Below are positions 5,823 through 41,634 of a DNA stretch of 64,000 nt, piece by piece (within the stretch, counting starts at the first letter, position 1; the number at the start of each line of letters is the position of its first letter). The notes below the pieces were generated by a model. It searched no databases and was not told the origin of the DNA. It worked only from the letters and a program-made list of their open reading frames with translations. The DNA comes from an uncultured Alphaproteobacteria bacterium. Lineage in GTDB: Bacteria; Pseudomonadota; Alphaproteobacteria; HIMB59; GCA-002718135. Location of the stretch: assembly GCA_902571865.1 (NCBI GenBank), contig CACGDO010000001.1, positions 82,315 to 146,314 on the forward strand, given 5' to 3'. Position numbers and translations under genes: made by a program.

Positions 5823-6610
5823 TTATGATTAAAGAAAAATAATTGTTTTCCATTTACTCGATAATTATTAATCAATTTTTTTGCTTCTTCTGATGTAATC
5901 CAATCAATATATTTTTTAGCCTCTTCAATATTTAAATTATTATTTAACTTATTGTTTACTAAAATTATTCCATATTGATTAAATAATGGCGGTAAATTTT
6001 CACAGACAATTTGTAAATTTTCTTTTTTATTAAAAGCTATCCAAGTGCTACGATCACTAAGAGTGTAAGCATTTTTTTGATTAGCTATTAATAATGTCGA
6101 TCCCATTCCCTGACCAACACTGAGATACCAATTTTCTTCAAATGGTACTCTTATATTTGATAATTCCCAAAGTTCTTTTTCTTTTTTGTGCGTGCCACTC
6201 TCATCACCTCTAGATACAAATAAAAATTTTGATTTTTTAATTTCAATCATTTTATTTTCAATTGAAGAGCATGTTTTTTTATCTTTTTTAGGTCCTATCA
6301 AGACAAAATCATTATACATCAAATCATGTCTAAGAATCCCATACCCATTATTCATAAATTCTAGTTCTGATTTTCTATGATGAACTAATAAAATTTCAAC
6401 ATTGCCATCCATTGCAACTTTAATTGCCTGCCCTGTTCCTAGAGATAATGCTCTAACTTTTGTCTGATATTTATTTTCAAATTTTTTGTTAATATATTCT
6501 AATAGACCCGTATCGTGAGTAGAAGTTGTGCTAGCTATGGTTATATATTTATTAGCAAATGCATTCTTAAACAAAAAAATTAAAATAAATATTAGAAAAA
6601 CTCTAATCAT
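5819..6610 (-). CDS. tupA: Tungstate/oxyanion ABC transporter substrate-binding protein (TupA-like)
   Basis: Signal peptide, ASTTSTHDTGLL, GTGQAI, SRGDESGTHKKE, GQGMG and YTLSDR. Confidence 0.85.
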   Translation of the reverse strand: MIRVFLIFILIFLFKNAFANKYITIASTTSTHDTGLLEYINKKFENKYQTKVRALSLGTGQAIKVAMDGNVEILLVHHRKSELEFMNNGYGILRHDLMYNDFVLIGPKKDKKTCSSIENKMIEIKKSKFLFVSRGDESGTHKKEKELWELSNIRVPFEENWYLSVGQGMGSTLLIANQKNAYTLSDRSTWIAFNKKENLQIVCENLPPLFNQYGIILVNNKLNNNLNIEEAKKYIDWITSEEAKKLINNYRVNGKQLFFFNHN

Positions 6611-6856: not shown

Positions 6857-7193
6857 AGTTAAATTTTTTAATTATAAACATGAAAATTGCATAAGCTATT
6901 GCAGTACTGAATATTGAAACAATTAGTGAAAAAACAAAATTTTGTTTAAATTTCAGAAGAATAGGTAAAACAATAAAAAAAACAAAAGAAGGAATACTCA
7001 TAACAATTGTACTATAAGATAAGTCTATTACTTTTTGATAATCCTTTGTGTCCCAATATAACCATATAAAAGCCAATAAAGATGTTAGTGGTAAGGAAAC
7101 AATTATTGCAGCAGTCCAAGTATATTTTTTTGCTATTTCAGATACTGCAACAATTATAATAGCACTTATTATAGTTTTAAGAAAAAAATACAT
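6846..7193 (-). CDS. Small membrane protein, DUF3147-like
   Basis: Four hydrophobic helices; SEIAK...SLPLTS pattern. Confidence 0.7.
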   Translation of the reverse strand: MYFFLKTIISAIIIVAVSEIAKKYTWTAAIIVSLPLTSLLAFIWLYWDTKDYQKVIDLSYSTIVMSIPSFVFFIVLPILLKFKQNFVFSLIVSIFSTAIAYAIFMFIIKKFNFNF

Positions 7194-8053
7194 TATTTAC
7201 TCACATTTGTTCTTGTAGCTATATAGACACCAAATGTACAAATTAACAGTCCAATAATATCAATTATAAATAATTTTTCATCTAAAACAAACCAAGCCAT
7301 TACAGCAGTCGTTGGAGGAACAAGGAAAAAAAGACTGCTAGTTTTAGAAGCTGTTCCATTTTTTATTAAATACATAAGTATTGCGTAAGCTCCAAAAGAC
7401 ACCATAATGATTTGCCACGATATTGATAAAATAAATCGTGTATCAAAATTAATAAATGATATTTCAAAAAATAATGAAATTATAAATAAAAATATTCCAG
7501 CACTTAATGCTTGATAAAAATTATTAACTGAAAGACTTATTTCATGAGTAAATTTTTTTTGCCAAATAGTAGCTGAAGTTGCCCCTAAAAGTGCAACAAT
7601 AGAAGCAATAACACCTATTGTTGGGATTTCTGTTCCAATATCATAACCTATAACTAATATAGTACCTAAAAAACCAAAAAATATTCCTATCCATTGCGTA
7701 ACAGTAACTTTTTCTTTTAAAATAGGTCCACTTAGAATATTTGTTAAAATAGGTTGGAGGCATACAATTAACGCAGATAATGTTGCAGTAAGTCCCATAG
7801 AATAAGAAAAAAATACTCCACCTAAATAAAATCCATGAAAAAGAATTCCAGTAATCATAGCTTGAAAGATTAAATTTAGATTTATTCTTATTCTTTCTGT
7901 AAGAATAATAGATAAAATTAAAAAAAATGCACTTACAATACAAAACCTAAAACATAATGCAGCAAAAGGGCTTGCTGATTGCACAATAAATTGACCACTT
8001 ATAAAAGCACTACTCCAAAAAAAGATAAATAAATATGAAAGATATAGGTTCAT
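7193..8053 (-). CDS. DMT/EamA family transporter
   Basis: About 10 TM helices; WSSAFI, QPILT and LVPP motifs. Confidence 0.9.
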   Translation of the reverse strand: MNLYLSYLFIFFWSSAFISGQFIVQSASPFAALCFRFCIVSAFFLILSIILTERIRINLNLIFQAMITGILFHGFYLGGVFFSYSMGLTATLSALIVCLQPILTNILSGPILKEKVTVTQWIGIFFGFLGTILVIGYDIGTEIPTIGVIASIVALLGATSATIWQKKFTHEISLSVNNFYQALSAGIFLFIISLFFEISFINFDTRFILSISWQIIMVSFGAYAILMYLIKNGTASKTSSLFFLVPPTTAVMAWFVLDEKLFIIDIIGLLICTFGVYIATRTNVSK

Positions 8054-8113
8054 TATAAATAATAATTCTATTCTTTATTTATAAATGTTATGAAAATTTA
8101 TTCATAGAATAAA

Positions 8114-8515
8114 ATGCTTAGCAATAAAATCAATTTTTTTTGTCCAAATTGTAGTTCAGATAAATATATTGGTAAAACTACTATAGGAAAAAACTATAAA
8201 GATGAACCATATAAAAATGTAACATCTGAAATACAATGCGCCAAGTGTTTTATGGATATTCCATCAATTATTTCAGAAAATATTTCTCCTGATAAGCAAA
8301 ATGAAATGTCCAAACTTTGGAATGAAATATATAAACCATCACATAAAGAAAGTGCTGCACAATGTTCAAAATGTTTTAGGTATTATTGGGAAATAGAAAA
8401 ATATTTATCTGAACATAATATTTCTGCAAAAGACATTTTCTATCAAACTTATAATCCTAAAAAATCAATTGGAGATTTAATTTGTAAGATTTGTGATCCA
8501 TCATCTTTTAAATAA
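8114..8515 (+). CDS. Hypothetical protein with four CxxC motifs (double zinc-ribbon candidate)
   Basis: CPNC, CAKC, CSKC and CKIC in 133 aa. Confidence 0.7.
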   Translation: MLSNKINFFCPNCSSDKYIGKTTIGKNYKDEPYKNVTSEIQCAKCFMDIPSIISENISPDKQNEMSKLWNEIYKPSHKESAAQCSKCFRYYWEIEKYLSEHNISAKDIFYQTYNPKKSIGDLICKICDPSSFK

Positions 8516-8520
8516 AATTA

Positions 8521-9375
8521 ATGTTAGCATATATTCTTAATATATCAGGTTGGCTGTTATTACCTTTCATGGATGGTATTGCAAAATATCTATCTTCAGA
8601 AATACATTTCATACAAGTTGTTTGGGGTAGATATTTTTTTATGCTTTTAGTTAGTTTTCCACTAGCATTTATATTTTTTAGAAAAGAAATTAGTTTTCCT
8701 AAAACAATTTCAGTACAGCTATTTAGAAGTTTTTTTTTATTTTTATCTACCGTTTTTTTCTTTTATTCAATTTCAGTTATAACTTTAGCAGAAGCTTTAA
8801 CCCTTGCATTTATCTCTCCAATAATAGTGACAATATTATCAATTTTTTATTTAAAAGAAAAAGTTGGAATTCATCGATGGACTGCAGTTTTGATTGGGTT
8901 TTTTGGTGTTATGATCATTATAAGACCAGGTTTTATAGAAATTAATTTTGCATCTTTCTCAGCTATTGCAGCAGGAATTTCATACGCTTTTTACATAATT
9001 TATACTCGAAAATTATCTTTTACAGATAGTGCTGTTGTTACTTTGCTTTTTACAGGTATCGTAGGTTGTATTTTTATATCTCTTATTGTTCCTTTTTACT
9101 GGATAAATTTAGATTTAAGACAATTATTTTTACTTATCTCATTAGCTTCAATTGGAACTTTAGGACATTTTTTAATAATTCTTTCTTTAAGACTTGGAGA
9201 AGCTTCTAAACTAGCTCCTTTGGGTTATTTTGAGATCTCCACAAATATACTTGTTGGATATGCCTTCTTCGGTGATTTGCCTGATATTTGGATTTATTTA
9301 GGATTATCTTTGATTGTTTTTAGTGGTATTTATATTTTTATTAGAGAAAGAAGAGAGATTAAAAAAACTAATTAG
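8521..9375 (+). CDS. DMT/EamA family transporter
   Basis: About 10 TM; LKEKVGIHRW, GVMIIIRPG and ASKLAP. Confidence 0.9.
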   Translation: MLAYILNISGWLLLPFMDGIAKYLSSEIHFIQVVWGRYFFMLLVSFPLAFIFFRKEISFPKTISVQLFRSFFLFLSTVFFFYSISVITLAEALTLAFISPIIVTILSIFYLKEKVGIHRWTAVLIGFFGVMIIIRPGFIEINFASFSAIAAGISYAFYIIYTRKLSFTDSAVVTLLFTGIVGCIFISLIVPFYWINLDLRQLFLLISLASIGTLGHFLIILSLRLGEASKLAPLGYFEISTNILVGYAFFGDLPDIWIYLGLSLIVFSGIYIFIRERREIKKTN

Positions 9376-10222
9376 TTTTTCTAGTTGTTTGATAAATAAA
9401 TATTGTAACAGATCCAAGCAGTAGAGCTCCTCCTATAACTGTATTTAGGGGAGGTATTTCATTTATAACAAGCCAAACCCAAGCAGTACCTAAAACACTT
9501 TCTAATAAAAATATTAGAGCTACTTCGTGTGCTGGAGCAAATTTAGGAGAAATTGTTAAAATCATAAATGGAATAGGTAGTATTAATAAGCACATTATGA
9601 AAAGAAATAAAATTTGATCATTATTTAAATCAAAGTTAATTCCAAATGGTAGAGCGTAAAGAGCTGATATTAAACATCCTAATAAACATGCAGGTACCAA
9701 ATCTTTATTTTTAAATAATCTAACAAGAACCATACTAAAACCCATTCCTATTGCTACAATTAGAGCCATAATATCTCCATATAATCCCGTAGTTGTAAAG
9801 CTTCCTATTCCAATTATTATCATCGCAAGCATAGCAATTAAAATCACTATCCATGTAAAAAGACTAGGTATTTCTTTAAGTATAAAAACTGAAAATAATG
9901 CAGCAAAAATAGGAGCTGATGCAATTAGAACTAATGTATTAGCTACAGCAGTATTTTGAATTGAATATACAAAACAAATATGAGTTATAGCATAGAGAAT
10001 AGAATAGATTATCCCTGGTACACCAATTAGATAAAATGATTTAAGAAAAGATCTTTTGTAAGTATAAATGAGAAAAATTAATATCGTAACAATTGGTAGG
10101 GCACTTCTATAAAATATTAAACTAAAATCATCTAAATTTACTAATCTAATAAATAAACTATCAGGGCTAAGTATTAAAACCCCAACAAATGATAGTATAA
10201 GACCCTTATTTCTTGTTTTCAT
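9368..10222 (-). CDS. DMT/EamA family transporter
   Basis: About 10 TM; LILSPDSL, ASAPIFAA and LLESVLG. Confidence 0.88.
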   Translation of the reverse strand: MKTRNKGLILSFVGVLILSPDSLFIRLVNLDDFSLIFYRSALPIVTILIFLIYTYKRSFLKSFYLIGVPGIIYSILYAITHICFVYSIQNTAVANTLVLIASAPIFAALFSVFILKEIPSLFTWIVILIAMLAMIIIGIGSFTTTGLYGDIMALIVAIGMGFSMVLVRLFKNKDLVPACLLGCLISALYALPFGINFDLNNDQILFLFIMCLLILPIPFMILTISPKFAPAHEVALIFLLESVLGTAWVWLVINEIPPLNTVIGGALLLGSVTIFIYQTTRKTN

Positions 10223-10290
10223 AAATATTTGAAAATAAATAGATTATTAATATATCTATCAGTATCATTCTTTAATTCACACTTGTTTTT

Positions 10291-10698
10291 ATGAAAAAAT
10301 TACTTTTTTTATGTTTTATTTTTTTATCACTAAATACTCACGCCTTAGACTCAAATAAATTAATAAACCTCGATGATTTAAAAATACTTTTTGATCTTCA
10401 AAAAAATTATTGGAACGAAAATGTTCTTTTTCTCATAAAAAAGAATTCATTTTCTAAAGTAGATAATGACTCAGATGTATTTTATTTAAAATCAATATTT
10501 AATGATGGCGAAATAATTACAATGCCAATTTTTTCTAAGGATATTGTTGAAAAAATTATATTTGAATATTTTTTTTTAGATCACAATAAAAAAAATTTAA
10601 AAATTATAAATAATCATTTTAATTCGTTTAAAAATTTTTGTTTTGAATATCTCTATAATGACAAGTCTATACGAGTAGTTATTACTAAATGTAATTAA
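10291..10698 (+). CDS. Hypothetical exported protein
   Basis: Signal-peptide-like N-terminus MKKLLFLCFIFLSLNTHA. Confidence 0.6.
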   Translation: MKKLLFLCFIFLSLNTHALDSNKLINLDDLKILFDLQKNYWNENVLFLIKKNSFSKVDNDSDVFYLKSIFNDGEIITMPIFSKDIVEKIIFEYFFLDHNKKNLKIINNHFNSFKNFCFEYLYNDKSIRVVITKCN

Positions 10699-11603
10699 TT
10701 AAAAACCATTGATGTAGCTTTAAAAATTAAACTATGTCTTTTAGCTAATTCTAATTTATCATTTGAATATCCACCACCTATTACTGTCGCAATAGGAATT
10801 GATTTATTTTTAAAGAATTCTAACACTGTAATATCTCTTTTTAATAATCCTTCAGTTGTTATTTTTAAATTTCCTAATTTATCATTCTCATGAATATCAA
10901 CTCCAGTATCATAAATTACTAAATCAGGATTAAAATTTTTTATACAACTATTAAGAGTTTGATATAATATTTCTAAATATTCATTATCTTCTAAATTATC
11001 ATCTAATTCAACATCCATGTCGCTTATTGATTTTCTAAATGGAAAATTATTTTTACAATGAATAGAGCATGTAAAAATTTTATAATTATCTTTAAGGATT
11101 GAGGCTGTACCATCTCCTTGATGCACATCAGTGTCAAAAATTAATATTTTTTTTACTTGATGGGTTCTTATTAAATGTAATGAAGCATAAGCCAAATCGT
11201 TAAAAACACAGTATCCTGAACCAAAATCTCTATGACTATGGTGTGTGCCACCTGCTAAATGATTTGCTATACCATTCTTAATTGCTTCTTTGCATGTTAA
11301 TAGAGTTCCATTAACTGCTAAAAAGGAACGATTAGAAAGTGTTTCTGACCATTTAAAACCCAATCTTCTTATTTCTTTATCGGATAAACTACCATTTTTA
11401 ATTTTTAATACGTAATCTAAATCATGACATATAGAAACCTCATCAACACTTGCTTTTTGAGGACTTAGAATTTTTGCACGATGATAAAAATCTGAAGTTT
11501 TCAATTCATTATATAAATCTGAAAACTTACTGGCAGTAAATTTATGATTTTCAGGTAGAGGAATGTCATAATCTTCGTGTGTTACCCAACTGATTTTTTT
11601 CAT
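10695..11603 (-). CDS. Histone deacetylase family (Zn-dependent deacylase) protein
   Basis: GGTHHS, GSGYCVFND, DTDVHQGDG, HENDKLG and GGGY. Confidence 0.92.
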   Translation of the reverse strand: MKKISWVTHEDYDIPLPENHKFTASKFSDLYNELKTSDFYHRAKILSPQKASVDEVSICHDLDYVLKIKNGSLSDKEIRRLGFKWSETLSNRSFLAVNGTLLTCKEAIKNGIANHLAGGTHHSHRDFGSGYCVFNDLAYASLHLIRTHQVKKILIFDTDVHQGDGTASILKDNYKIFTCSIHCKNNFPFRKSISDMDVELDDNLEDNEYLEILYQTLNSCIKNFNPDLVIYDTGVDIHENDKLGNLKITTEGLLKRDITVLEFFKNKSIPIATVIGGGYSNDKLELAKRHSLIFKATSMVFN

Positions 11604-11835
11604 AAATTTGCCTCTTTCTAACTCAATTTATGCCTAAATTAATTTGTACATAGATTATGTGGCACTAATCTAACAATATATATTTAGTGAGTAAATGTAT
11701 TCTATCCATAAAGAATTAGTGTCACAACCAATATGGAATTTGTTTTAATATTTGATTTATTAATTATTTGTTTAATTGGTTTATTTATTGTCAATTTTTA
11801 TTGAATTAATAATCAATTTAAATAATATTTTAAGA

Positions 11836-12615
11836 ATGAAAGATTTTTATGATCTAAATGGCTATTTTTCACCATTAAAAATTTATAATGCAAAAGAAGC
11901 AAATTTTTTTAGAAATAAATTAGAAGACTCAGAAAAAGAATTAGGTAAACTTCATTATATTGTTAAAACTTATACAATAATGAAATGGGTGTATGAAATA
12001 GCAACTAATAAAATATTGCTTGATTTTGTCGAAGAAATAATTGGTAAAAATATATTATTATATAATGCAACTTTTATAATAAAAGAACCAAACACTAAAA
12101 CACACGTAAGTTGGCATCAAGATCTTACCTATTGGGGTTTTGATAATAATCAAAAACAAGTAAGTGCATGGTTAGCTTTATCCAAAGCTAATGATCAAAG
12201 TGGTTGTATGCAAATGATTCCAGGCTCCCATAAAAATGGATTTTTTCAACATCATTCAACTGAAGATAAAAATAATGTTTTATCTAGAGGTCAAACTGTA
12301 AAAGATATTGATATAAATAAAGCAGTATCATGTCCGTTAGAACCCGGTGAAGTTTCTTTTCATCATGGTCTAACATTACACGCATCTCAGCCTAATTCTA
12401 GTAATGACAGAAGAATAGGATTAAATTTTCAATTTATTTCTACTGATATGAAACAACTAAAAAGCAAAAATGATAGCGCTATTTGTGTAAGAGGAGAAGA
12501 TAAGTACAAAAATTTTAAGACTGATCAAGTAGCTAAAGATGACTTTGATCATGAGGCTTATCAACATCTTTTAGTATTAAATAATCATTATAATGAAACA
12601 ATAAGAAAAAATTAA
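11836..12615 (+). CDS. Phytanoyl-CoA dioxygenase (PhyH) family 2OG-Fe(II) oxygenase
   Basis: WHQD, IPGSH, HHGLTLHAS and DRRIG. ATG at 11836 preferred to TTG at 11776. Confidence 0.88.
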   Translation: MKDFYDLNGYFSPLKIYNAKEANFFRNKLEDSEKELGKLHYIVKTYTIMKWVYEIATNKILLDFVEEIIGKNILLYNATFIIKEPNTKTHVSWHQDLTYWGFDNNQKQVSAWLALSKANDQSGCMQMIPGSHKNGFFQHHSTEDKNNVLSRGQTVKDIDINKAVSCPLEPGEVSFHHGLTLHASQPNSSNDRRIGLNFQFISTDMKQLKSKNDSAICVRGEDKYKNFKTDQVAKDDFDHEAYQHLLVLNNHYNETIRKN

Positions 12616-12677
12616 TATTTATTTATTAGAATCTGAAATAAGAGATCTAAAAATTAACTTCTATTTAATCAAATCAT

Positions 12678-13589
12678 ATGAATGTTTTATCTGGAATTAG
12701 TATCGGATTTATTGGTTACACGATATTTGTCATTTTAGATACAATAATTAAAAAATACCTAGTTAATGAATATTCTGTTTTTCAAATAAATTTTTATATT
12801 TGTCTTTTTAGTTTTATACCAACATTATTAACTCTTTATTTTTTAAACAAATGGAGCTCACTAAAAAATGATATTATTCATATACAGCTTCTTAGAGGAT
12901 TATTTGGATTAATTTCAGGGGCTTTAGTAGTTTATTCATTTAGAAAACATGCATTTAGTGAAATTTACCCAATATTATTTAGTGCTCCATTAATGATAAC
13001 AATGTTATCCCATTTTTTTTTAGATGAAAAAGTTGGTATTAGAAGATGGTCAGCGGTAACAGTTGGATTTATTGGCGTATTAATAGTTAGTAGACCTGGC
13101 ACTATTCATTTTTCATTAAGTCTATTTGGTTTATTTTTTTCCGCATTACTAATGGCGATAAATATTACTTTAGTAAGAAAGTATTCAAATAATCAATCAT
13201 CAATAGCATTTACTTTTTATGCTTTTTTATCTGCAACTATTTTAAATGGATTACTTAGTTTTAATAGCCACATCGCATTATCTTTTAATGACCTAATAAT
13301 ACTTGTTTTTTGTGGTATTATTTGTGGAATTGGGGGTAATTGTTTAACAATCGCCTCAAAATTTTTAGAGTCTAGTGTTTTTGCTCCTATTCAATATACA
13401 CAATTAATTTCTGGAGCAATTTTAGGTTATTTATTTTTTGCTGATATTCCAGATATTTATGAAATTATTGGATCATTAATTATTGTCGGTAGTGGAATTT
13501 ATATAATAATTCGAGAAACAAAAATAGGTGTTAGACCATATATTAAAGAGGATTCAAGATTTCGTGACCAATTTAATAGAGGTCATTAA
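12678..13589 (+). CDS. DMT/EamA family transporter
   Basis: About 10 TM; LDEKVGIRRW, SRPG and APIQY. Confidence 0.9.
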   Translation: MNVLSGISIGFIGYTIFVILDTIIKKYLVNEYSVFQINFYICLFSFIPTLLTLYFLNKWSSLKNDIIHIQLLRGLFGLISGALVVYSFRKHAFSEIYPILFSAPLMITMLSHFFLDEKVGIRRWSAVTVGFIGVLIVSRPGTIHFSLSLFGLFFSALLMAINITLVRKYSNNQSSIAFTFYAFLSATILNGLLSFNSHIALSFNDLIILVFCGIICGIGGNCLTIASKFLESSVFAPIQYTQLISGAILGYLFFADIPDIYEIIGSLIIVGSGIYIIIRETKIGVRPYIKEDSRFRDQFNRGH

Positions 13590-13644
13590 ATTAATAATTA
13601 TAAATCAAAACTTTGTGATAATGTTTTAAAAGCATAAAATTTTT

Positions 13645-14832
13645 ATGAAAAATTTATTTAATAATAAAAATCCAATAACTTTACTAATTTTATCATCAAT
13701 AGCCATGCCTATCGCTTTTAGTACTTGGATGGTTTTATTAAATAATTTCTCAGTTGAAAGAGCAAGTTTTACTGGAGTTGAAATTGGAATACTTCAAAGT
13801 ATCAGAGAGATACCTGGCTTCCTAGCATTTACTATTATTTTTTTATTGTTCTATTTTAAAGAACAATATTTTGCTATTTTTTCTTTAGCCTTAACTGGTT
13901 TTGGTGTTGCAATTACAGGTTTCTTACCAACTGTTTATGGTTTGTATTTTACAACAATTATTATGAGTACTGGCTTTCATTATTGTGAAACAGCCAAAAA
14001 TTCTTTGAGTTTACAATGGCTTTCAAAAGAGGAAGCTCCACCAGTTCTAGGAAAATTAATAGCTATTAGCTCAATTACGTCTTTATTTTTGTATTGTATT
14101 ATTTGGAGTTTATTAGAAATCTTTAATTTAGATTATAAGTTTATATTTTTAATTGCAGGATTAATTTGTATTCTTATTTCCATACACCTTTTTATATCCT
14201 TTCCTTTTTTTGAAATCAAAAATAAACAACATAAAAAAATAATTCTAAAAAAAAAATATTCTCTTTACTATATCTTAATTTTTTTATCAGGTGCTAGAAG
14301 ACAAATTTTTGTAGTTTTTGCAGCTTTTTTAATGGTAGAAAAATTTGGATATTCAGCATCGCAAGTTACTTTACTATTTTTGGTTAATTATATTTTTAAT
14401 TGGTTTTTTGCAGAACGTATTGGAAAGTTAATAAATATATTTGGTGAGAAAAAATGTCTTATATTTGAATATATTGGACTCGTAATCGTTTTTACATCTT
14501 ATGCATTCGTGACTAATGCTTATGTTGCAGCAGGTTTATATATTATTGATCATATGTTTTTTGCATTAGCTATTGCAATTAATACATATTTTCAAAAAAT
14601 TGCTGATCCAAAAGATATTGCAAGCACTGCAGGTGTTTCATTTACTATCAATCATATAGCTGCAGTATTTATCCCAGTACTTTTAGGATTTGTTTGGATT
14701 AATTCTCATTCAATAGTTTTTTTAATTGGATCTTTGTTTGCTCTACTATCTTTAATCGCTTCATTTTTTTTACCTAATAATTTATCAAAGATTATTTTAG
14801 ATGAAAGTAATTTAAAAAAAGTAAGAGTATAA
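13645..14832 (+). CDS. MFS transporter
   Basis: About 12 TM; QSIREIPGFL, SGARRQIF and FTINHIAAV. Confidence 0.88.
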   Translation: MKNLFNNKNPITLLILSSIAMPIAFSTWMVLLNNFSVERASFTGVEIGILQSIREIPGFLAFTIIFLLFYFKEQYFAIFSLALTGFGVAITGFLPTVYGLYFTTIIMSTGFHYCETAKNSLSLQWLSKEEAPPVLGKLIAISSITSLFLYCIIWSLLEIFNLDYKFIFLIAGLICILISIHLFISFPFFEIKNKQHKKIILKKKYSLYYILIFLSGARRQIFVVFAAFLMVEKFGYSASQVTLLFLVNYIFNWFFAERIGKLINIFGEKKCLIFEYIGLVIVFTSYAFVTNAYVAAGLYIIDHMFFALAIAINTYFQKIADPKDIASTAGVSFTINHIAAVFIPVLLGFVWINSHSIVFLIGSLFALLSLIASFFLPNNLSKIILDESNLKKVRV

Positions 14833-14833
14833 T

Positions 14834-15253
14834 TTACTCACCTATATAACTAAGAATTATTTTTCTTTTGTATTTACTGTACCTGTGTTCAATTAGATAT
14901 ATTCCCTGCCACATCCCTAATTTCATTTCTTTATTGTTTATAGGAACTGTTAATGAGGTTTGAGTAAGCATAGATTTTATGTGAGCAGGCATATCATCAT
15001 CTCCTTCATAACCGTGTTTATATAATGAAGCATCTTCAGGAACTATTCTTTGAAAAAAAGAATTAATATCATCTAATACATCAGGGCTAGCATTTTCCAT
15101 TATTGTTAATGAAGCAGAAGTGTGTTGTATAAATAAATTTAGCTGACCTTTAATTATATTATTTTTTAAAATCCAATCATGAACATTATTTGTAATTTCA
15201 TACATTCCCTGTCCATTATTAGAAATTATCAATTCATCTTGTAGATTTAACAT
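14834..15253 (-). CDS. yjbQ: YjbQ / UPF0047 secondary thiamine-phosphate synthase family
   Basis: QHTSASL, HGYEGDDDMPAHIKS and GMWQGIYLIEHR. Confidence 0.92.
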   Translation of the reverse strand: MLNLQDELIISNNGQGMYEITNNVHDWILKNNIIKGQLNLFIQHTSASLTIMENASPDVLDDINSFFQRIVPEDASLYKHGYEGDDDMPAHIKSMLTQTSLTVPINNKEMKLGMWQGIYLIEHRYSKYKRKIILSYIGE

Positions 15254-15446
15254 TTTCTAATCTTAAAATGAAGTCGTGGCACCTACAAGGAGAATTATAA
15301 TGAAAATTAATGTTATGAAAAAAAGAACTATTCTTTTGATAAGTGCCACAATTTTTTAAATATAATCAAATTTTGTTTTAATAGAGATATAAATAAGGAA
15401 AAATTGTGTTATGATTATCCTAATTCATTTTAGCTAGGAATATTAT

Positions 15447-16337
15447 TTGTTAAACAATAATCAATTTGCAATTTTTTTAATTATTATATCAATTATTTTT
15501 GGTACTCTTATGGGTACATTTATAAAATTAGCTCAAGAAGAATTAAATGTATTTACAACTGGTTTTTTACGTTTTTTCTTTGGTTTTTTAATCATTACCC
15601 CTTACATTCTAAAAACAAAATTTGAAGTATTTAGTACAAAAAATTTAAAAATTCATGTTTTACGGTCAGCACTAAACTTACCTGCAATGCTACTTGGTTT
15701 TGCAGCTTTAGCTATGCTTCCATTAGAGAAAATGACAGCCATTCATTTTATAGTTCCTATCATTGTTACAATCTTAGCTGTGATATTTTTAAAAGAAAAA
15801 ATCTATTTATATAGGTCAATTGCATTAGTGATGGGTTTTCTAGGAATGTTAATAATATTGCGACCCGGTATTATAGATATTTCTATTGGAATATATATGG
15901 CGCTTATTTCATCGCTAATTTGGTCAGTAGTTATAATTTTAACTAAAAAAGTATCTAAGGATGATAGTGCTATAACAATATTATCACACCAATATGTTTA
16001 TATGAGTCTTTTTTCATTTCCATTAGTTATATATTTTTGGGATCAGCCAAGCTTAAAAACAATTATTTTTATATTATGTGCTGCAATCTCAGGAACTATA
16101 TTACATATTGCATTAAATCATGCATATAAATTAGTTGATGTAACTATGACCCAACCTTATTCATTTTTAGGATTAGTAGTTTCATCAATAATTGGATATT
16201 TTGTATTTAGTGATAAACCTGATTTTTATACCTGGTTAGGTGCCTCTGTAATTTTTTGTGGTGTGCTTCTAATTTCTTACAGAGAACTTCAATTAAATAA
16301 AGAAATTACAAGAAAGAGATTAAATATTAATTCATAA
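15447..16337 (+). CDS. DMT/EamA family transporter
   Basis: About 10 TM; FLKEKI, ILRPG and QPY. TTG start, exact start uncertain. Confidence 0.88.
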   Translation: MLNNNQFAIFLIIISIIFGTLMGTFIKLAQEELNVFTTGFLRFFFGFLIITPYILKTKFEVFSTKNLKIHVLRSALNLPAMLLGFAALAMLPLEKMTAIHFIVPIIVTILAVIFLKEKIYLYRSIALVMGFLGMLIILRPGIIDISIGIYMALISSLIWSVVIILTKKVSKDDSAITILSHQYVYMSLFSFPLVIYFWDQPSLKTIIFILCAAISGTILHIALNHAYKLVDVTMTQPYSFLGLVVSSIIGYFVFSDKPDFYTWLGASVIFCGVLLISYRELQLNKEITRKRLNINS

Positions 16338-16379
16338 TTTTAATATATAACATCGTTAGATTATGTGTATTATTAGTAA

Positions 16380-17627
16380 ATGCAAAATAATTATTTTTAT
16401 AAATGGATAGATAGTAATAAAGAAGATGAAATAAATAGTTTCAAAGAATGTATAGATTCATATATTTATTTTAAGAAAGATGCTTTTTATAAAACTAACA
16501 AATTAATTAAAAAAAAACCAGAATTTAATGCTCCAAAATTATTAAAAATAGTTTTATTGCTTTTTTCTAGAGATGTACAAAAAATTTCATTAGCTAGAGA
16601 AACATTCAAATCAATTTCTACTGATAAAGTAAATGATTATTTTCATCAATATTTAGAGATAGTAAATCTTTGGATTAAAAATGATTTAAAAAATTTATTA
16701 AATAAATTGGAATTAATTATAAAAGATAATCCCAAAGATATTTTTGCAATTAGATTATTTCATTTTAATAATATTTTCTTGGGTATTGATAGTAAATTTT
16801 TAAATAAACATGAGGAAATACTAAGTATGTGGTCTGAAAATGATCAGCATTATAATTTACTATTAGGGATGACTAGCTATGCTTTTGAAGAAAATAATAT
16901 AATTGATAAAGCTAAGCTTTTAGCCTTAAATTCACTAAAACAATCATCAAATGATTTATGGAGTTGGCATGCCCTTTTGCATGTACACGATAATGAGAAT
17001 AACGACTCAATTAACAACAATAATAATTTTAATGAAATTAATTGGTCAATTTATGGGCCAATAAAAAGACATATATGGTGGCATCAATCATTAATATTAT
17101 TCTACAATCAGGAATATGCGAAAAGTTTAAAACTATTTGATAATTATTTCTCTTCTTCAGAAATTTTTTATTTAGATTTTTGTAATGCTTGTTCTTTTTT
17201 ATTAAGACTTCATTACAAAGGAGTGGATGTTAAAGAAAGAATGGATAAATTAAAAGATTATGCTGAATATTTTAAAAATCAACATATACTTCCATTCATT
17301 GATTATCATCTTATTTTTTATTACTTATACTATAATGACCAAGATTATTTTCAACAACTTGAACAGAGAATGGAAGAAAATTATTTAGAAAATTCTTTTA
17401 AAGAAAATTATATTAATTACTTAAAGCCAATCATGTACAGTATGAAAACAAATGAATTATTAAACGAAAATATAATTAAATCACAATTTAAATACCTTGG
17501 AGGTAGTTTTGCTCAACGAGAACTTATTTTTTTAAGTTTAATCCAAAATACAAAATATGAAAAAAATAAATCAGATTTAATATCAGAATATAATGATTAT
17601 AAATCAGTATCAAAATTATATGTATAA
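16380..17627 (+). CDS. TTC38-like tetratricopeptide repeat protein (divergent)
   Basis: YAFEE, WSWHALLHV, HIWWH, DFCNACSFLLRL and GGSFAQRE resemble TTC38-family patterns. Confidence 0.65.
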   Translation: MQNNYFYKWIDSNKEDEINSFKECIDSYIYFKKDAFYKTNKLIKKKPEFNAPKLLKIVLLLFSRDVQKISLARETFKSISTDKVNDYFHQYLEIVNLWIKNDLKNLLNKLELIIKDNPKDIFAIRLFHFNNIFLGIDSKFLNKHEEILSMWSENDQHYNLLLGMTSYAFEENNIIDKAKLLALNSLKQSSNDLWSWHALLHVHDNENNDSINNNNNFNEINWSIYGPIKRHIWWHQSLILFYNQEYAKSLKLFDNYFSSSEIFYLDFCNACSFLLRLHYKGVDVKERMDKLKDYAEYFKNQHILPFIDYHLIFYYLYYNDQDYFQQLEQRMEENYLENSFKENYINYLKPIMYSMKTNELLNENIIKSQFKYLGGSFAQRELIFLSLIQNTKYEKNKSDLISEYNDYKSVSKLYV

Positions 17628-19434
17628 CTCTAAATTGTTGGAAGAAAAATTTATAAAAAACTCAAATAATAATTTTACCTTATTAAAAGATAATCTTTTT
17701 TTTCGAAATATAACTTTTCAAAATTTTCAAATTTTAAAGATGATATCATTTTTGGTAAGAGACAAAAATTGGAATAACTATGATCCTAAAATTCTAAATT
17801 ATGAAGAGAACTTTGATACATCCTTAGAATATATATTCGATTTAGAATATGGTATAAACGAAATTCTTAAAACAAGAAATGTTATATTATTTTCTGAAAA
17901 TTCTATCACACTATCCTCTGAGGGAGAATTTTTAACTGATTTTTGGACTAATAGAATAGGTTTTAATTTATTAATTCCATTAGAAAATCATGTTGGTTCA
18001 AACATCATTGTAACAAAAGGGAACGATTTAAAAGAGAATAAAAAATTTCCAGAAAATATAAAACCCGATCAACCATTTTTTAAATTTAAAAACCTTGCTT
18101 ATACTTTAGACGATAGTTTGTTGGTTAATATTAATTTTGAGGGTATTTTATTTGAAATGGAAGATCAAAGAAACTGGGGTGATGCTTCTTACAAAATATA
18201 TAGTGGTTCTTTATTAAATCCTTTTCCGTATGTAGAAAAAGGGGGGTCTAATTTCTCTCAAACTGTTAAAATAGATGTAGAAAATAAAAAACAAAGATCA
18301 TTTCCATCTATTAATATTGTAAAAATTGATCATATTACTTCCTATAAATTCCCTAAAATTGGTATAAAAATTGATTCTCCAATTCTTCCTGATGATAATT
18401 TAATTAAAAACTTTGATTATTATTACTATCTTATTGATTTTACTGATGATTTTAAGAATGTAACTTCAAGATCTGACAAAAAGGTGTTTCTTGTAGCTTT
18501 AGTTGATCATGCTAATGATCCTGAAGAAGAGTTAACAAAAATTTATAATTTTATAGCTGAAAATACTATTAATTTAGATAAAATTTTAATTTGCCCTAAA
18601 ATATATTTGAATAGTTTTCAACCAGCTGGTGAATGGCCTAAAGTTCCAGAATTAAATGAATACTATAAAATAGCGAAAAAGATATTTTCTAATAGTCAAA
18701 TTGTTTCTGGAATGGTCACTAATTTTACAGAATTAAATAGAAAGAGACCAAAAATGTTTTATGATTTGGTTAGTTTTTCCTTCACTCCAATTGTTCATGA
18801 TTCTAGTGATTTTGGTGTGTTAAATACACCTGAAACTATACCTTATATCCTTAAAACTTTAAAAAATTTTTCTAAAAGTTCTGATGTTCATATTGGTCCA
18901 ATTACTATTGGTATGCATTTCAATCCATATGGTGAAAGTCTTGTAAGTAATAAAAGCAAAATAAGATTAGAAATGGCTGATAGCGATCCAAGGCATGATC
19001 AATTATTTTCACTAACTTGGACACTGGCAATTTTTATTCAATCAATAAATAAAGAATCAAAATTTTTTACTTTTAATTCTATTTATGGGCATCACGGAAT
19101 ATTAAATAAAAATAATACCAAAAGACCATTGTATCATTTAAATAATTTTCTTATTTCATTAACAAATTCAGAAATTTTTAAATTTAATCCAGTTAACGAA
19201 GTGTATGGATTAAAAATCGTACTAAATGATAAAAAGTATTATTTATTTGTCAATTCCTCAAAACAGAAAAAGGAAATTATTATTCCTGAAATAAATTTTA
19301 GTAATCAATATAAACTTAATTTAAAAAATTATACTGATATTTTTAATAATGATTTTTCTTTTTTTAACTTTAAAAAAGATTTAAATCCTTATACATTTGA
19401 GCCATTAGAAATCAAATTTATAGAAGATAAATGA
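17620..19434 (+). CDS. apnL: D-apionate lactonase-like protein
   Basis: VRDKNW, NRIGF, FEMEDQRNWGDASYK, SFQP, TNFTELNR, HDS and DPRH match the ApnL family as I recall it; adjacent to an ApsD-like gene. Start at 17620 or 17593. Confidence 0.7.
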   Translation: MYNSKLLEEKFIKNSNNNFTLLKDNLFFRNITFQNFQILKMISFLVRDKNWNNYDPKILNYEENFDTSLEYIFDLEYGINEILKTRNVILFSENSITLSSEGEFLTDFWTNRIGFNLLIPLENHVGSNIIVTKGNDLKENKKFPENIKPDQPFFKFKNLAYTLDDSLLVNINFEGILFEMEDQRNWGDASYKIYSGSLLNPFPYVEKGGSNFSQTVKIDVENKKQRSFPSINIVKIDHITSYKFPKIGIKIDSPILPDDNLIKNFDYYYYLIDFTDDFKNVTSRSDKKVFLVALVDHANDPEEELTKIYNFIAENTINLDKILICPKIYLNSFQPAGEWPKVPELNEYYKIAKKIFSNSQIVSGMVTNFTELNRKRPKMFYDLVSFSFTPIVHDSSDFGVLNTPETIPYILKTLKNFSKSSDVHIGPITIGMHFNPYGESLVSNKSKIRLEMADSDPRHDQLFSLTWTLAIFIQSINKESKFFTFNSIYGHHGILNKNNTKRPLYHLNNFLISLTNSEIFKFNPVNEVYGLKIVLNDKKYYLFVNSSKQKKEIIIPEINFSNQYKLNLKNYTDIFNNDFSFFNFKKDLNPYTFEPLEIKFIEDK

Positions 19435-20453
19435 AAAAATTAAAAGGAGCATTAATCGGTTGTGGTTTCTTTGCTGAAAATCATATTTTAGCTTGGAAAG
19501 AATTAAGAAATATAGAAATAATATGTGTTTGCGATTTAGATATAAAAAAAGCTAATAAATTTAAATCTAAATTTAACATTTTACATTCTTATTCATCTAT
19601 AGAATTAATGTTAAAAAAACATAAAATTGACTTTGTTGATGTTGTAACAACAATGGAGACACACTTAAATATTGGCAAAATTTTATCTAAGTATAAAATT
19701 CCAACTTCTATACAAAAGCCATTTGCTGAAAATTTATCTAATGCAAAAAAAATTGTTTCTTTATATAAAAAAAATAAAACACCACTTATGGTTCATGAGA
19801 ATTTTAGATGGCAAAGCCCTCTATTAAAATTAAAAGAAATTATAAATAAAGAGCAATTAACGAAACCACATTATGCCAAGATATCTTTTAGACATGCAAA
19901 TCCTGTTGGATATACCAATCAAACATATTTATACGATTTAAAAGAGTATTTAACCCTAGACGTAGGAATCCATTTATTTGATTTAAGTAGATTTTTTATG
20001 GGAGAAGCAAAAAGTATTTATACAGTAAATCAAAATACAAATAATAAATTTAAAGGTGAAACCGATTTTATATCTCTGATAAGAAATAGAAATAATAGTA
20101 TTACTATTGTTGATGCATCTATTTCTTCAATAAAAAAACCAGACAGATTTGCTCAAACACTAGTTAATTTAGAATTCTCTAACGGCTCAATTGATTTGGA
20201 CTACAATTACAAAATTATTCTTCACAAAAATAATAAAAAGAAGATTTATGATGGAAAACCAAAGAAATATAAATGGATTTCAAAACCTTGGGATCAAATT
20301 CAAGAAAGTGTAATCAATACGCACAAACATTTCATTGATTCACTAATAAATAATATTGAACACGACACCAGTGGTGAAGATAACATAAAGAGTTTATCAT
20401 TAGTCTTCAATTCATATAAATCTGATAAACTGAGAAAAGAAATTAAAATTTAA
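19431..20453 (+). CDS. apsD: Gfo/Idh/MocA oxidoreductase, D-apiose dehydrogenase-like
   Basis: KGALIGCGFFA, QKPFA, PLMVHENFRWQ, DVGIH and KPWDQIQESV closely follow ApsD as I recall it. 4-nt overlap with the apnL-like gene. Confidence 0.72.
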   Translation: MKKLKGALIGCGFFAENHILAWKELRNIEIICVCDLDIKKANKFKSKFNILHSYSSIELMLKKHKIDFVDVVTTMETHLNIGKILSKYKIPTSIQKPFAENLSNAKKIVSLYKKNKTPLMVHENFRWQSPLLKLKEIINKEQLTKPHYAKISFRHANPVGYTNQTYLYDLKEYLTLDVGIHLFDLSRFFMGEAKSIYTVNQNTNNKFKGETDFISLIRNRNNSITIVDASISSIKKPDRFAQTLVNLEFSNGSIDLDYNYKIILHKNNKKKIYDGKPKKYKWISKPWDQIQESVINTHKHFIDSLINNIEHDTSGEDNIKSLSLVFNSYKSDKLRKEIKI

Positions 20454-20467
20454 TTTTTTATTTAAGT

Positions 20468-23080
20468 TTAAATTGTAAATTTCGAGATTTCATCTCTAAT
20501 TAATTTACTTAAGAGACTGTAACCAAGTACATTCATGTGTAATGGATCTTCTGAATAAAATTTTTCAAATCCAGCATCAAGCATAGGAGAGCAAAGATCA
20601 ATATAGCGCCATTGACTAAAATTCTCAATTTTGTTTTTAATTCGTTCATTTGCATCTAATATTGTATTTAAATAATTATTCCTAAATACACTTGGCTTAA
20701 TAGAAACAAAAAAACATAAGGTATGAGGTAATTTTTCATTAACTTCAGAAGCAAATAATAAAAATTCATTTTCTAAATCTTCAGCACTCATTCCGCTGCC
20801 TATATCATTATCACCTGCATAAAAAATCATCTTATCAGGATTATTTGGTACTACTATTCTATTAAAATAGGTTCGGCATGATACTAATGTGGAACCACCA
20901 AATCCTAAATTTAATAAACTATCAAATGACAGATCAGTTTTTGCATTTTCCCAATCTCTAAATGTTGAACTTCCAAATAAGACTATTTTGTTATTTTTAT
21001 ATTGATCTGAATATAATTTAATTTCTAATTCTCTTACATCTGCTTCAAATTCTTCTTCAATAGGGCTTACTAAATTTAAGTTACTAACCACATCTTCATA
21101 ATTAATTTTATTTTTTGAAGCAGATTTTGCTAATTCAATTGCTTCCTCAACATATGTTCTAAAAGTTTTTCTATATTTAGATAAAAAATTTTCTAACTCT
21201 TTTTTATTTTTCATATCATTTACAAAATCTTTTATTTTTATTGGTTCTTTAATAACTGCTGAATAAATAGTATCAGAAATTGAATAATCAAAATTTGCTA
21301 ATGCAATTGGAACAAGAAGGGGCTCTGGTTTTAATTGGTCTGCTAATAAAAATGCACCTGGTTTTAATGGACCTGGGGAATTTGGAGTTAAATTATCTTC
21401 AGTTTCAGATGTACCTTCTGGTGCTATAACTAAAGGTCTGTTTTGATCAAAAATATTTTGAGTTTCGATAAATAATTTACTTTTTCTTTTCTTTTTTTGT
21501 TCTTGAGTTTCATTTAAATAATCTGATTCTGGCGTATGGACGAAAATATAATCTAAATTCTCATAATAATTATATCTCCAGAATTCAGTATTTCTAGAAT
21601 ATCTAGCAATTCTTTGACCACCATCACCATATTTTGGAAATAAAATTTTTGCACTTATAAAGTGACTATCTATACTAAATTGATGTCCATTGGCTAAACC
21701 ATTTTCTTCAATGCTTGCCAAATGATTATAAAAAAATATGTTTGTGGCTTCATCAGGTAAATTCTCCATACCTTTAATAACATAAGGTACTTGATCAAAA
21801 GCTTTTATAAAATCTGAATTTGTTAATTTTTGTAATGCTTGTTTATTTATTGAATCATATGAATTTGCAACTCTGTTGTATATTTTGTTTAGTTGTTTGA
21901 AAAATCTATTTTTTCTTTCTATACCACTCAATGCATCTATCATTAAACTCGCTATAGATTTTTCATCATCATTACCTGTGATAATTAAATCATAAATTGT
22001 ATCAAATGCTAAAGAATGAGTTAAATGATTTTCTAATAAATGAGGTATTGTATAAAGTTTGGAATTACTTGGTATTGTTGCAGAATTATCGTTTAATAAA
22101 TATTGAAAAAACTCTTTTTCATTTTTAGCTGGATAGGTTGTTAAGCCTGTTGAACTTTGAATATAGCGTCCTAATTGCCATAATTGTCTTTTAAAAAATT
22201 TGATTGCCAATTCTGGATTTGTTTTGATTAAATTATCAATAAATTCATTTGAGAATTTTAATATTGTTGTATCTCTTGTTGCTTTTAAGGAGTAGGGTGA
22301 TTCAATTTCGTGTAATCCTGAAGATAAAGACAATGCTACTCCTGGCCTAGCTATTGATCGTGAATTGTTTTCTAATTGGTCATCTTTTAAGTTTGTAAAA
22401 GAGGCTTCAACCTTACCTTTTAACAAAATATTTATTCCATCAGATTTTTTACCTTCTAATGTTATAAATTCACCAGATGAAAATAGTCTAACGTTTGCGT
22501 AATGTATTAATTCATCTAAATCGTTATCATCAAGAAAAGCTAAAAATGCTGAATTTTTAATTCTTTTGGTATTTACAATATCTCCACCAGTTTTAACACC
22601 ATCTGCTAAATTAATATTTTTTTGTTCAATGGGTTTTTCTAAATTGCGAGATGTCCAAATTAAATTAATGGATTCAAATAATAAAAAAGAATAAAAAAAA
22701 CTTGCATAGTCAGGATCTACTTCTTCCAATTCTTTTAACTTTTCTATTTTGATAGAAATATATTCTGAATTATCTTTAATAAATATGTCTGACATATACC
22801 TACCAGGTGCATTCAAGCCCGAAATACCAAGAGGTGATCCGGTATTTTTTAATGTCGCTAACTTATAGAAAACATTATTATGATATTTTACGTATTCAGC
22901 TTCACCTTTTAAAAGAATAAAAATTTGATCAGCAATACCATGCTGTTCTGCAATTTTGATGTCTTCATTGCTTTTGTGAAATTCTGCTCCTGAATTGATT
23001 AAATCTTCTGTATTTTTCTTTGGAGACAAAGAAAAACCTTTATCTACTAGTATTAAAGATATTTTTTCACTTAAATTCAT
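20468..23080 (-). CDS. Multidomain protein: two cyclic-nucleotide-binding-like domains + PlsC-type acyltransferase + SGNH/GDSL hydrolase
   Basis: FILLKGEA and NILLKGKV (cNMP folds); VIKGMENLP..FFYNH, APEGT and LKPGAFLLA (PlsC); LFGSS, GFGGS, AGDND and DPLH (SGNH). Confidence 0.8.
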   Translation of the reverse strand: MNLSEKISLILVDKGFSLSPKKNTEDLINSGAEFHKSNEDIKIAEQHGIADQIFILLKGEAEYVKYHNNVFYKLATLKNTGSPLGISGLNAPGRYMSDIFIKDNSEYISIKIEKLKELEEVDPDYASFFYSFLLFESINLIWTSRNLEKPIEQKNINLADGVKTGGDIVNTKRIKNSAFLAFLDDNDLDELIHYANVRLFSSGEFITLEGKKSDGINILLKGKVEASFTNLKDDQLENNSRSIARPGVALSLSSGLHEIESPYSLKATRDTTILKFSNEFIDNLIKTNPELAIKFFKRQLWQLGRYIQSSTGLTTYPAKNEKEFFQYLLNDNSATIPSNSKLYTIPHLLENHLTHSLAFDTIYDLIITGNDDEKSIASLMIDALSGIERKNRFFKQLNKIYNRVANSYDSINKQALQKLTNSDFIKAFDQVPYVIKGMENLPDEATNIFFYNHLASIEENGLANGHQFSIDSHFISAKILFPKYGDGGQRIARYSRNTEFWRYNYYENLDYIFVHTPESDYLNETQEQKKKRKSKLFIETQNIFDQNRPLVIAPEGTSETEDNLTPNSPGPLKPGAFLLADQLKPEPLLVPIALANFDYSISDTIYSAVIKEPIKIKDFVNDMKNKKELENFLSKYRKTFRTYVEEAIELAKSASKNKINYEDVVSNLNLVSPIEEEFEADVRELEIKLYSDQYKNNKIVLFGSSTFRDWENAKTDLSFDSLLNLGFGGSTLVSCRTYFNRIVVPNNPDKMIFYAGDNDIGSGMSAEDLENEFLLFASEVNEKLPHTLCFFVSIKPSVFRNNYLNTILDANERIKNKIENFSQWRYIDLCSPMLDAGFEKFYSEDPLHMNVLGYSLLSKLIRDEISKFTI

Positions 23081-32291: not shown

Positions 32292-32300
32292 GGAATAACA

Positions 32301-33236: not shown

Positions 33237-33237
33237 T

Positions 33238-37860: not shown

Positions 37861-37861
37861 T

Positions 37862-39409: not shown

Positions 39410-39448
39410 TCAAAAAATCTATCAAAAAAGAAAACTAATTTCAATATT

Positions 39449-40372: not shown

Positions 40373-40378
40373 TAAATA

Positions 40379-41407: not shown

Positions 41408-41454
41408 AATAAAATAATTATAAATTATTATATAATAATATATAAATTAAATAA

Positions 41455-41634
41455 ATGACTGAGTTACAATGGTATGCTTATCTTGGAGGGTTTGTAGCGT
41501 TTGCAATTGGATGCTACGTATATTATCTTTCTAGAAATAAAGAACTAAATGATCAGCAAGTTAAAAATAGAAAAAGAGTAATGAATTTTTTTTTAATAAT
41601 AGCTTTAGTTTGCGTGGGTTATTCATGGTTATAA
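41455..41634 (+). CDS. Putative 59-aa two-TM small protein (missed by ORF track)
   Basis: Translated by hand: MTELQWYAYLGGFVAFAIGCYVYYLSRNKELNDQQVKNRKRVMNFFLIIALVCVGYSWL*. It fills the spacer before the kinase gene. Confidence 0.7.
   Translation: MTELQWYAYLGGFVAFAIGCYVYYLSRNKELNDQQVKNRKRVMNFFLIIALVCVGYSWL

Follow-up and report, generated by a model that had tools for sequence, protein, structure and literature searches.

A TTC38-family gene coupled to ApnL-like and ApsD-like genes in SAR11-type marine Alphaproteobacteria: a putative oxidative entry module for a sugar

The genome of an uncultured alphaproteobacterium (GenBank assembly GCA_902571865.1) carries three overlapping genes that encode, in this order, a protein of the TTC38 family, a homolog of D-apionate lactonase (ApnL) and a homolog of D-apiose dehydrogenase (ApsD). 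They lie in a window of 64 kb, the whole stretch of DNA that was analysed (positions 82,315 to 146,314 of contig CACGDO010000001.1; coordinates below are those of the window). The trio is a translationally coupled operon confined to SAR11-type, very AT-rich marine Alphaproteobacteria, and its homologies suggest, with a probability put at about 0.55, an oxidative entry module by which an aldose, apiose or a related sugar, would be converted via its aldonolactone to the aldonate. The overlapping ApnL-like and ApsD-like genes at 17620-20453 had been noticed in an earlier note made from the sequence alone, and their coordinates and homology are confirmed here; the TTC38-like gene, overlooked at that time, belongs to the same conserved unit. 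The three genes are as follows.

16380 to 17627, plus strand: TTC38-family protein, 415 amino acids; first gene of the trio; all-helical solenoid resembling tetratricopeptide repeats (TPR)
17620 to 19434, plus strand: ApnL-family (D-apionate-lactonase-like) protein, 604 amino acids; predicted hydrolase of the lactone formed by the dehydrogenase
19431 to 20453, plus strand: ApsD-like Gfo/Idh/MocA NAD(P)-dependent dehydrogenase, 340 amino acids; predicted aldose 1-dehydrogenase

The TTC38-like gene runs 8 nucleotides into the start of the lactonase gene (ATGTATAA), and the lactonase stop and the dehydrogenase start share 4 nucleotides (ATGA at 19431-19434). The open reading frame (ORF) of the lactonase, listed as 17593-19434, truly starts with the ATG at 17620, since its homologs are 604 amino acids long; gene callers start at the equivalent site. 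Contigs of seawater metatranscriptomes, which can include DNA carry-over, run at low depth through all three genes and bridge both junctions (17502-17841, 19144-19439 and 19190-19724), consistent with a single transcript. A scan for promoters and terminators (47 promoter-like sites versus 51 expected, no terminators) is uninformative in DNA this AT-rich. The G+C content of the window (22-35%, about 26%) and the nearest named relatives of its proteins, which are Pelagibacteraceae (SAR11), bear out the previous assignment of the DNA to a streamlined genome of marine type.

The gene order TTC38-like, lactonase, dehydrogenase is invariable among marine loci, in clades down to 40-44% identity. The synteny set comprises 8 loci from genomes or collected earlier and a further 43 from a scan of Joint Genome Institute (JGI) metagenome contigs with a profile of the TTC38-like protein, and some of the loci are too short to hold all three genes; in every marine locus with enough sequence (clades of 43-97% identity), the TTC38-like gene is directly upstream of the lactonase gene. 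A census of genes within 10 kb of the ApnL gene, made by tblastn on the fetched loci, found ApnO in 53, OiaK in 54, a RuBisCO-like protein in 51, ApsD in 49 and an apiose-type solute-binding protein (SBP) in 50 of the 75 non-marine loci, and a TTC38-like protein in none. The marine loci always have a TTC38-like protein and an ApsD-like Gfo/Idh/MocA dehydrogenase, and in none of them did the census find ApnO, OiaK, a RuBisCO-like protein or an apiose-type SBP; the complete oxidative D-apiose pathway (with OiaT/OiaX or OiaC) is thus not encoded within 10 kb in these loci. The dehydrogenase is the most conserved member of the trio (70-71% identical between marine clades). One metagenome locus (L106, 77% identity) contains a decayed module at 672-1738, with the TTC38-like gene split in two ORFs, approximately 104 amino acids of the lactonase left and no dehydrogenase.

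The three proteins are common in seawater metagenomes, where their 90%-identity clusters hold 588, 782 and 592 sequences and about 0.6 of the sampled words from the trio are found in many runs. In a scan of 185,579 species representatives the module is rare, with 5 marine-type loci among the best 80 (four in single-cell genomes or metagenome-assembled genomes labelled 'uncultured Alphaproteobacteria', and one in a metagenome-assembled genome from the Caspian Sea). The marine lactonase and TTC38-like genes are labelled 'hypothetical' by NCBI and JGI, and the dehydrogenase is labelled a generic oxidoreductase.

The pair of enzymes was compared with a cluster of Ensifer adhaerens (L001) that encodes an SBP, a DUF2291 protein and an ABC transporter, a Gfo/Idh/MocA dehydrogenase, ApnL, a GntR regulator, a RuBisCO-like protein and a DUF1537 kinase. 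This reference is genuine, because its RuBisCO-like protein exceeds the cut-off of the OiaX equivalog model (779.6 versus 700 bits); the best match of its kinase is OiaK, and its lactonase carries the UniRef name D-apionate lactonase. The oxidative D-apiose cluster (ApsD, ApnL, ApnO, OiaK and OiaT/OiaX) was reportedly described by Carter and colleagues from Rhizobiales and other soil bacteria.

The lactonase of the window (ORF A) matches the NCBIfam model NF049900, 'D-apionate lactonase ApnL' (EC 3.1.1.115), over its full length (E = 1.6e-94). Domains Apionate_lact_N and Apionate_lact_M (PF25837/8) are precomputed for the near-identical protein of another locus (L007) and for all marine homologs, and Apionate_lact_C (PF25839) is recorded in canonical ApnL proteins only; a local Pfam scan of ORF A gave no match, the models being probably missing from that copy or under threshold. 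The AlphaFold 2 model of ORF A (pLDDT 89.5) consists of an N-terminal beta-sandwich, a TIM barrel and a C-terminal beta-sandwich (residues ~518-603), and thus the C-terminal domain is apparently present but too diverged for PF25839. The fold matches of this model are glycosidases of families GH36, GH97 and GH30, which have the same domain plan; searches of PDB sequences with ORF A and with the TTC38-like protein, as single sequences and as a profile, returned nothing meaningful. ORF A keeps all 44 columns that are invariant over 12 marine and 15 canonical ApnL sequences (among them E179, M180, E181, D182, Q183, R184 and W186 of the motif EMEDQRxW, H393, N435, P436, Y437, D456 and R458), and 71 of the 100 columns conserved in canonical ApnL proteins. 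A midpoint-rooted neighbor-joining tree of 27 ApnL-family proteins splits the marine sequences from all canonical ones and resolves three marine sub-clades, which share about 88%, 50% and 43% identity with the protein of the window.

The dehydrogenase (ORF B) is a Gfo/Idh/MocA oxidoreductase (PF01408 and PF22725) that aligns end to end, at 35% identity, with its counterpart in the Ensifer apiose cluster. Among solved structures it matches best 5UHW (237.8 bits; the next PDB entry scores 48.6 bits), which was deposited from Agrobacterium radiobacter with the title 'oxidoreductase' and nothing more. The Ensifer dehydrogenase scores 553.8 bits on 5UHW, as a near-ortholog, and therefore 5UHW is an ApsD-type enzyme; we take it to be the ApsD of Carter et al. 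ORF B shares with ApsD-type sequences the Rossmann motif GCGFFA and the catalytic Q95-K96-P97 and D177-x3-H181, and keeps 56 of the 87 columns conserved in 53 apiose-cluster enzymes (including QKP, HENFRWQ, D177-x3-H181 and TSGxDN). NCBIfam has no ApsD model, and Ensifer ApsD itself (EC 1.1.1.420 type) receives generic matches only, so that the absence of an ApsD hit for ORF B is uninformative. The residues kept in both enzymes would fit the same reaction class, with a specificity that is altered or uncertain.

The closest non-marine relatives of ORF B are 42-47% identical to it (P0493-P0506) and form the sister group of the marine clade in a neighbor-joining tree; the dehydrogenases of apiose clusters are 32-39% identical and thus further off, so that the nearest relatives outside the marine clade are apparently not apiose-cluster enzymes. 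These closer, ApsD-like relatives belong to uncharacterised sugar clusters, of which two were inspected (L139 and L140); unlike the marine trio, neither has an ApnL-family or TTC38-like neighbor, nor ApnO or OiaK, and one also has a gene of the enolase superfamily. Since the closest non-marine relatives lack ApnL in these two loci, the subfamily is apparently broader than apiose, and similarity to ApsD alone would not fix the substrate. The phylogenetic comparison with ApsD and ApnL that had been suggested as a check therefore upholds homology and does not uphold clustering with the apiose-type enzymes, as the lactonase falls in a separate clade and the dehydrogenase groups with the relatives of 42-47% identity.

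The first protein of the trio has no match in Pfam, in NCBIfam or among PDB sequences. A word-indexed search with its 415 amino acids found 84 relatives, all marine, and a profile of the marine members (A1), run against 1.84 billion representatives, found 1597 relatives, which are mostly 440-470 amino acids long and annotated 'tetratricopeptide repeat protein'; a cluster that contains zebrafish (Danio rerio) TTC38 was matched with E = 2.1e-40. When the family is aligned across its range from SAR11 to fish, 27 columns prove invariant, and the marine protein keeps every one of them. It is thus a member of the TTC38 family, by full-length profile similarity, the inclusion of a vertebrate member and the retention of the invariant residues, although it is shorter (415 versus about 440-470 amino acids) than other members of this family, which extends from bacteria to vertebrates. 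The invariant residues are rich in His (6), Asp (3), Arg (3), Trp and Glu and include H128, H197, H201, H231, H235, H310, D120, D192, D254, R276, R287 and R380, a pattern that suggests a catalytic or metal-binding site, not a passive repeat scaffold. The AlphaFold 2 model (pLDDT 87.9) is wholly helical, with 24 helices, and a fold search with it found generic TPR solenoids alone (TM-score at most 0.44) and no functional lead. Legumain, which appeared among PDB hits at E = 0.28, was dismissed as a relative of the TTC38-like protein or of ORF A. The TTC38 literature that was searched assigns no function; it offers omics lists and, from an exome-metabolome study, the association of a missense variant of human TTC38 with unidentified plasma metabolites (PMC5780481). 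The marine proteins are the only TTC38 subgroup seen here in an operon with sugar-oxidising enzymes.

In the proposed mechanism, a small free aldose would enter the cytoplasm, where the dehydrogenase would use NAD(P)+ to oxidise it at the anomeric carbon, giving an aldonolactone that the ApnL-family enzyme would hydrolyse to the aldonate. The TTC38-like protein may act on the aldonate, standing in for the steps of ApnO, OiaK and the RuBisCO-like protein, or alternatively may act before the oxidation, on a sugar conjugate. The products of ORF A and ORF B resemble those of the oxidative D-apiose cluster as an adjacent, overlapping pair of a Gfo/Idh/MocA dehydrogenase and an ApnL-family hydrolase with full-length homology (35% and 29% identity, respectively), and as cytoplasmic proteins, with no signal peptide evident in the N-terminal sequences. 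Unlike the canonical cluster, in which the dehydrogenase precedes the lactonase, the marine trio has the lactonase first, lacks ApnO, OiaK, the RuBisCO-like protein, the GntR regulator and the ABC transporter with its SBP and DUF2291 protein, and has an obligatory TTC38-like gene (found in 0 of 75 loci of canonical type). The two-enzyme chemistry is already known; a clade restricted to SAR11, with its reversed order, its loss of all known downstream genes and its invariable TTC38 partner, appears to be undescribed in the literature searched.

The logic of a dehydrogenase followed by a lactonase is also that of the Weimberg and Dahms routes for pentoses and the De Ley-Doudoroff route for galactose, which consist of an aldose 1-dehydrogenase, a lactonase, an aldonate dehydratase and an aldolase. 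The marine lactonase differs from those of such routes in being of the ApnL type, not SMP-30, amidohydrolase-2 or metallo-beta-lactamase, and we know of no member of a known dehydratase family (IlvD/Edd or enolase superfamily) in the marine module. An aromatic route of the LigC/LigI/LigK type was considered for the combination of dehydrogenase, lactonase and RraA-like protein and was rejected: the lactonase is unrelated to LigI, and there are no other lig genes.

The earlier note had remarked that no apionate oxidoisomerase, kinase or apiose transporter is evident next to the pair, and this holds for the window as a whole, in which tblastn with Ensifer ApnO, OiaK, OiaX, SBP and DUF2291 protein found nothing at E <= 1e-3. 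Homologs of the RraA-like and adenine-deaminase-like proteins of sister clades are likewise missing from the window. Two other loci of the window were considered as sources of the lower pathway and rejected, each having no apiose-specific match and lying at least 16 kb away: an SMP-30 lactonase gene (903-1871), and a sugar locus at 36-46 kb with an FGGY kinase, an aldo-keto reductase, a 2-hydroxyacid dehydrogenase and an SBP.

Some sister lineages have a fourth gene in the operon. In the 50% clade, the dehydrogenase gene is followed by a gene for an RraA-like protein (PF03737, an aldolase/decarboxylase family), and the same is found, with a 4-nucleotide overlap and otherwise unrelated neighbors, in L130, which represents a different clade at 40% identity; the 43% clade has a gene for an adenine-deaminase-like amidohydrolase in this place instead. 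A 53% relative that shares the flanking genes of the window (L107) has a GH4 glycosidase gene that ends 1 nucleotide before the TTC38-like gene and belongs to the alpha-galactosidase subfamily (539.8 bits; cut-off 486). Together, the RraA-like protein and this GH4 glycosidase resemble a progression from glycoside to sugar to sugar acid to cleavage, and the recurrence of the RraA-like gene lends some support to the dispersed or novel lower pathway that had been proposed. A fuller scheme, in which a TTC38-like enzyme, the ApnL-like and ApsD-like enzymes and, in some lineages, the RraA-like protein would make up a short SAR11 route to central metabolites that starts from a rare sugar (apiose or a relative of branched or furanose type, which a glycoside might supply), replacing the steps of ApnO, OiaK and the RuBisCO-like protein, is quite doubtful. 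In one locus of the 50% clade (L003), the region past the trio and the RraA-like gene (16161-21830) encodes an HpcH/HpaI aldolase, a GntR/UTRA regulator, an ABC transporter with SBP_bac_1 and an ADP-ribosylglycohydrolase, which may have no connection with the trio or may form part of a more extensive sugar-acid island.

Several observations weigh against the aldose-to-aldonate module, the chemistry of which is predicted for the marine-clade members from homology. Identity of the pair to characterised-type enzymes is just 29-35%, ORF A being 29% identical to E. adhaerens ApnL over 561 residues, and its score of 317.6 bits on NF049900 is far under the curated equivalog cut-off of 750 bits, which places it outside that equivalog. 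Residues conserved in the canonical enzymes are replaced in the lactonase (H by L119, H by Y161, E by V292 and R by H433) and in the dehydrogenase (E by K83, D by P158, R by E172 and D by T211). The dehydrogenase genes of L139 and L140 adjoin genes for AP_endonuc_2 TIM-barrel proteins and sugar ABC or TRAP transporters, and the context of AP_endonuc_2 and ABC genes is known too for Gfo/Idh/MocA enzymes that oxidise C3, not C1. No transporter is conserved alongside the trio across the marine loci. The TTC38-like protein belongs to a family without known activity, and two other bacterial TTC38 genes (in Tropicimonas and Roseibium) have neighbors unrelated to sugars, which makes the connection with sugar oxidation a particular feature of the marine clade.

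A genuine D-apiose entry module, in which ORF B would be a D-apiose 1-dehydrogenase and ORF A a D-apionolactonase, with apionate handled elsewhere or by new means, is unlikely, even though ApnL and ApsD are the sole characterised relatives of the pair and are themselves an adjacent pair, 5UHW is by far the top solved match, and the family-invariant residues are kept. Apiose is not confined to land plants, and it is not implausible in the sea: the marine phototroph Geminicoccus roseus makes UDP-apiose (apiosylated metabolites also occur in green algae; PMC5607165) and the marine Rhodobacteraceae strain LCG007 grows on D-apiose via the canonical cluster (PMC11747546). The assignment is nevertheless kept low because of the low identity, the score of ORF A (318 bits against an equivalog cut-off of 750) and its separate clade in the neighbor-joining tree, the closer relatives of the dehydrogenase (42-47%), whose two inspected contexts are not apiose clusters, the lack of ApnO, OiaK, a RuBisCO-like protein or an apiose SBP in the marine loci and in the window, the seawater provenance of the metagenomes and single-cell genomes that represent the host clade, and the glycosidase added in L107, which is of the GH4 alpha-galactosidase subfamily and not an apiosidase. 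Plant-type sources of apiose should be scarce in such seawater. Of the D-apiose entry module first proposed for this locus, homology to ApnL and ApsD is thus upheld, and the assignment to D-apiose itself is not supported, the reversed gene order and the TTC38-like partner adding to the points just given.

It is improbable that the dehydrogenase instead oxidises a ring hydroxyl (for example C3 of a glycoside or anhydrosugar), with the ApnL-like protein cleaving the product and the TTC38-like protein assisting, for which DgpA, levoglucosan dehydrogenase and the glycoside 3-dehydrogenases are precedents. The ApnL-family model does share the domain plan of GH36, GH97 and GH30, ORF B weakly matches DgpA, levoglucosan dehydrogenase and the BT_2158/2159 glycoside 3-dehydrogenases, its nearest non-marine relatives adjoin AP_endonuc_2 and sugar ABC transporter genes, and GH4, itself of a redox-elimination mechanism, has joined the operon of L107. 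ORF B, however, scores 238 bits to the ApsD-type structure versus at most 42 bits to any 3-dehydrogenase, the lactonase keeps every invariant residue of the ApnL family, and the enzymes of defined biochemistry in the two families are confined to C1 oxidation and lactone hydrolysis, according to the passages of PMC12994016 and PMC11747546 that cite Carter et al. 2018. Least probable of all is a role apart from nutrition, in which the trio would remove or repair a reactive lactone or aldehyde or make a sugar acid for another use. The lack of a conserved transporter or regulator, the variation of the fourth gene by lineage, the presence of TTC38 proteins in animals, which have no ApnL, and the decayed copy in L106, which implies that the module is dispensable, would suit such a role, but the patchy accessory distribution (5 loci among the best 80) is typical of the use of a niche substrate and not of housekeeping, and glycosidase and aldolase genes enter the operon in some lineages.

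SAR11 bacteria are among the most abundant in the surface ocean, and their few carbohydrate pathways shape which dissolved organic carbon is removed. The trio is an accessory trait of some SAR11 lineages, and identification of its substrate would reveal a new sink for one particular sugar in seawater. Genomic clues to the function of the TTC38 family, which extends from bacteria to vertebrates and is uncharacterised, are rare, and the invariable coupling seen here is one of them; if the TTC38-like protein is an enzyme, its activity would be the first biochemical function for a family conserved up to humans.

The gene immediately upstream of the trio encodes a transporter of the EamA/DMT family.

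15447 to 16337, plus strand: EamA/DMT-family membrane transporter (PF00892); ends 42 nucleotides before the trio

It is found in this position only in the lineage of the window (L007, L016, L017, L096-L100, L102-L104 and L136) and is absent upstream of the trio in L008, L018, L107 and the 50% and 43% clades; it is thus a lineage-specific neighbor and a possible candidate for import of the substrate. The region 7193-16337 is unusually dense in EamA/DMT paralogs, encoding at least five (7193-8053, 8521-9375, 9368-10222, 12678-13589 and 15447-16337), among which are found a transporter of the major facilitator superfamily, a PhyH-like oxygenase, a histone-deacetylase-like protein and YjbQ, and suggests a variable region in which gene content differs between close relatives. 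On the other side of the trio, a convergent gene starts 14 nucleotides past the dehydrogenase stop (20468-23080, minus strand) and encodes a multidomain protein of 870 amino acids with weak matches to cyclic-nucleotide-binding, acyltransferase and GDSL-lipase domains; this gene is 94-99% conserved in sister genomes and is missing from L018 and L107.

Other genes of the window also concern sugars or sugar acids. At 257-1871, an ORF resembling beta-hydroxyacid dehydrogenases (top NCBIfam matches L-threonate dehydrogenase and tartronate semialdehyde reductase; the ORF as called does not cover roughly the first 90 positions of the Rossmann profile) is followed by the SMP-30/gluconolactonase-family gene (903-1871), possibly a second lactone or sugar-acid pair, 16 kb from the trio. 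A separate carbohydrate locus with nothing specific to apiose (36047-46221) encodes an epimerase-like protein of the short-chain dehydrogenase/reductase family, a GH32/GH43-like beta-propeller, a glucose/sorbosone-dehydrogenase-like protein (515 amino acids), the 2-hydroxyacid dehydrogenase, the aldo-keto reductase (L-glyceraldehyde-3-phosphate-reductase subfamily, 472.6 bits, above the cut-off), the FGGY kinase, which is xylulokinase-like, and SBP_bac_1 with two permeases and no adjacent ATPase; a GT61-like glycosyltransferase gene follows. Near the start of the window are genes for the protein adenylyltransferase SelO (3581-4969), an M81/MlrC-like peptidase (2204-3580) and a TupA-like tungstate-binding protein (5819-6610). 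A conserved triad of circularly permuted ATP-grasp, Alpha-E and transglutaminase-like proteins is encoded at 30885-34077. A urease cluster at 49148-53949, which follows an amidinotransferase/DDAH-like gene, includes the genes for UreD (49148-49942) and for the alpha subunit of urease (50553-52259); small ORFs lie between these two genes and past the second.

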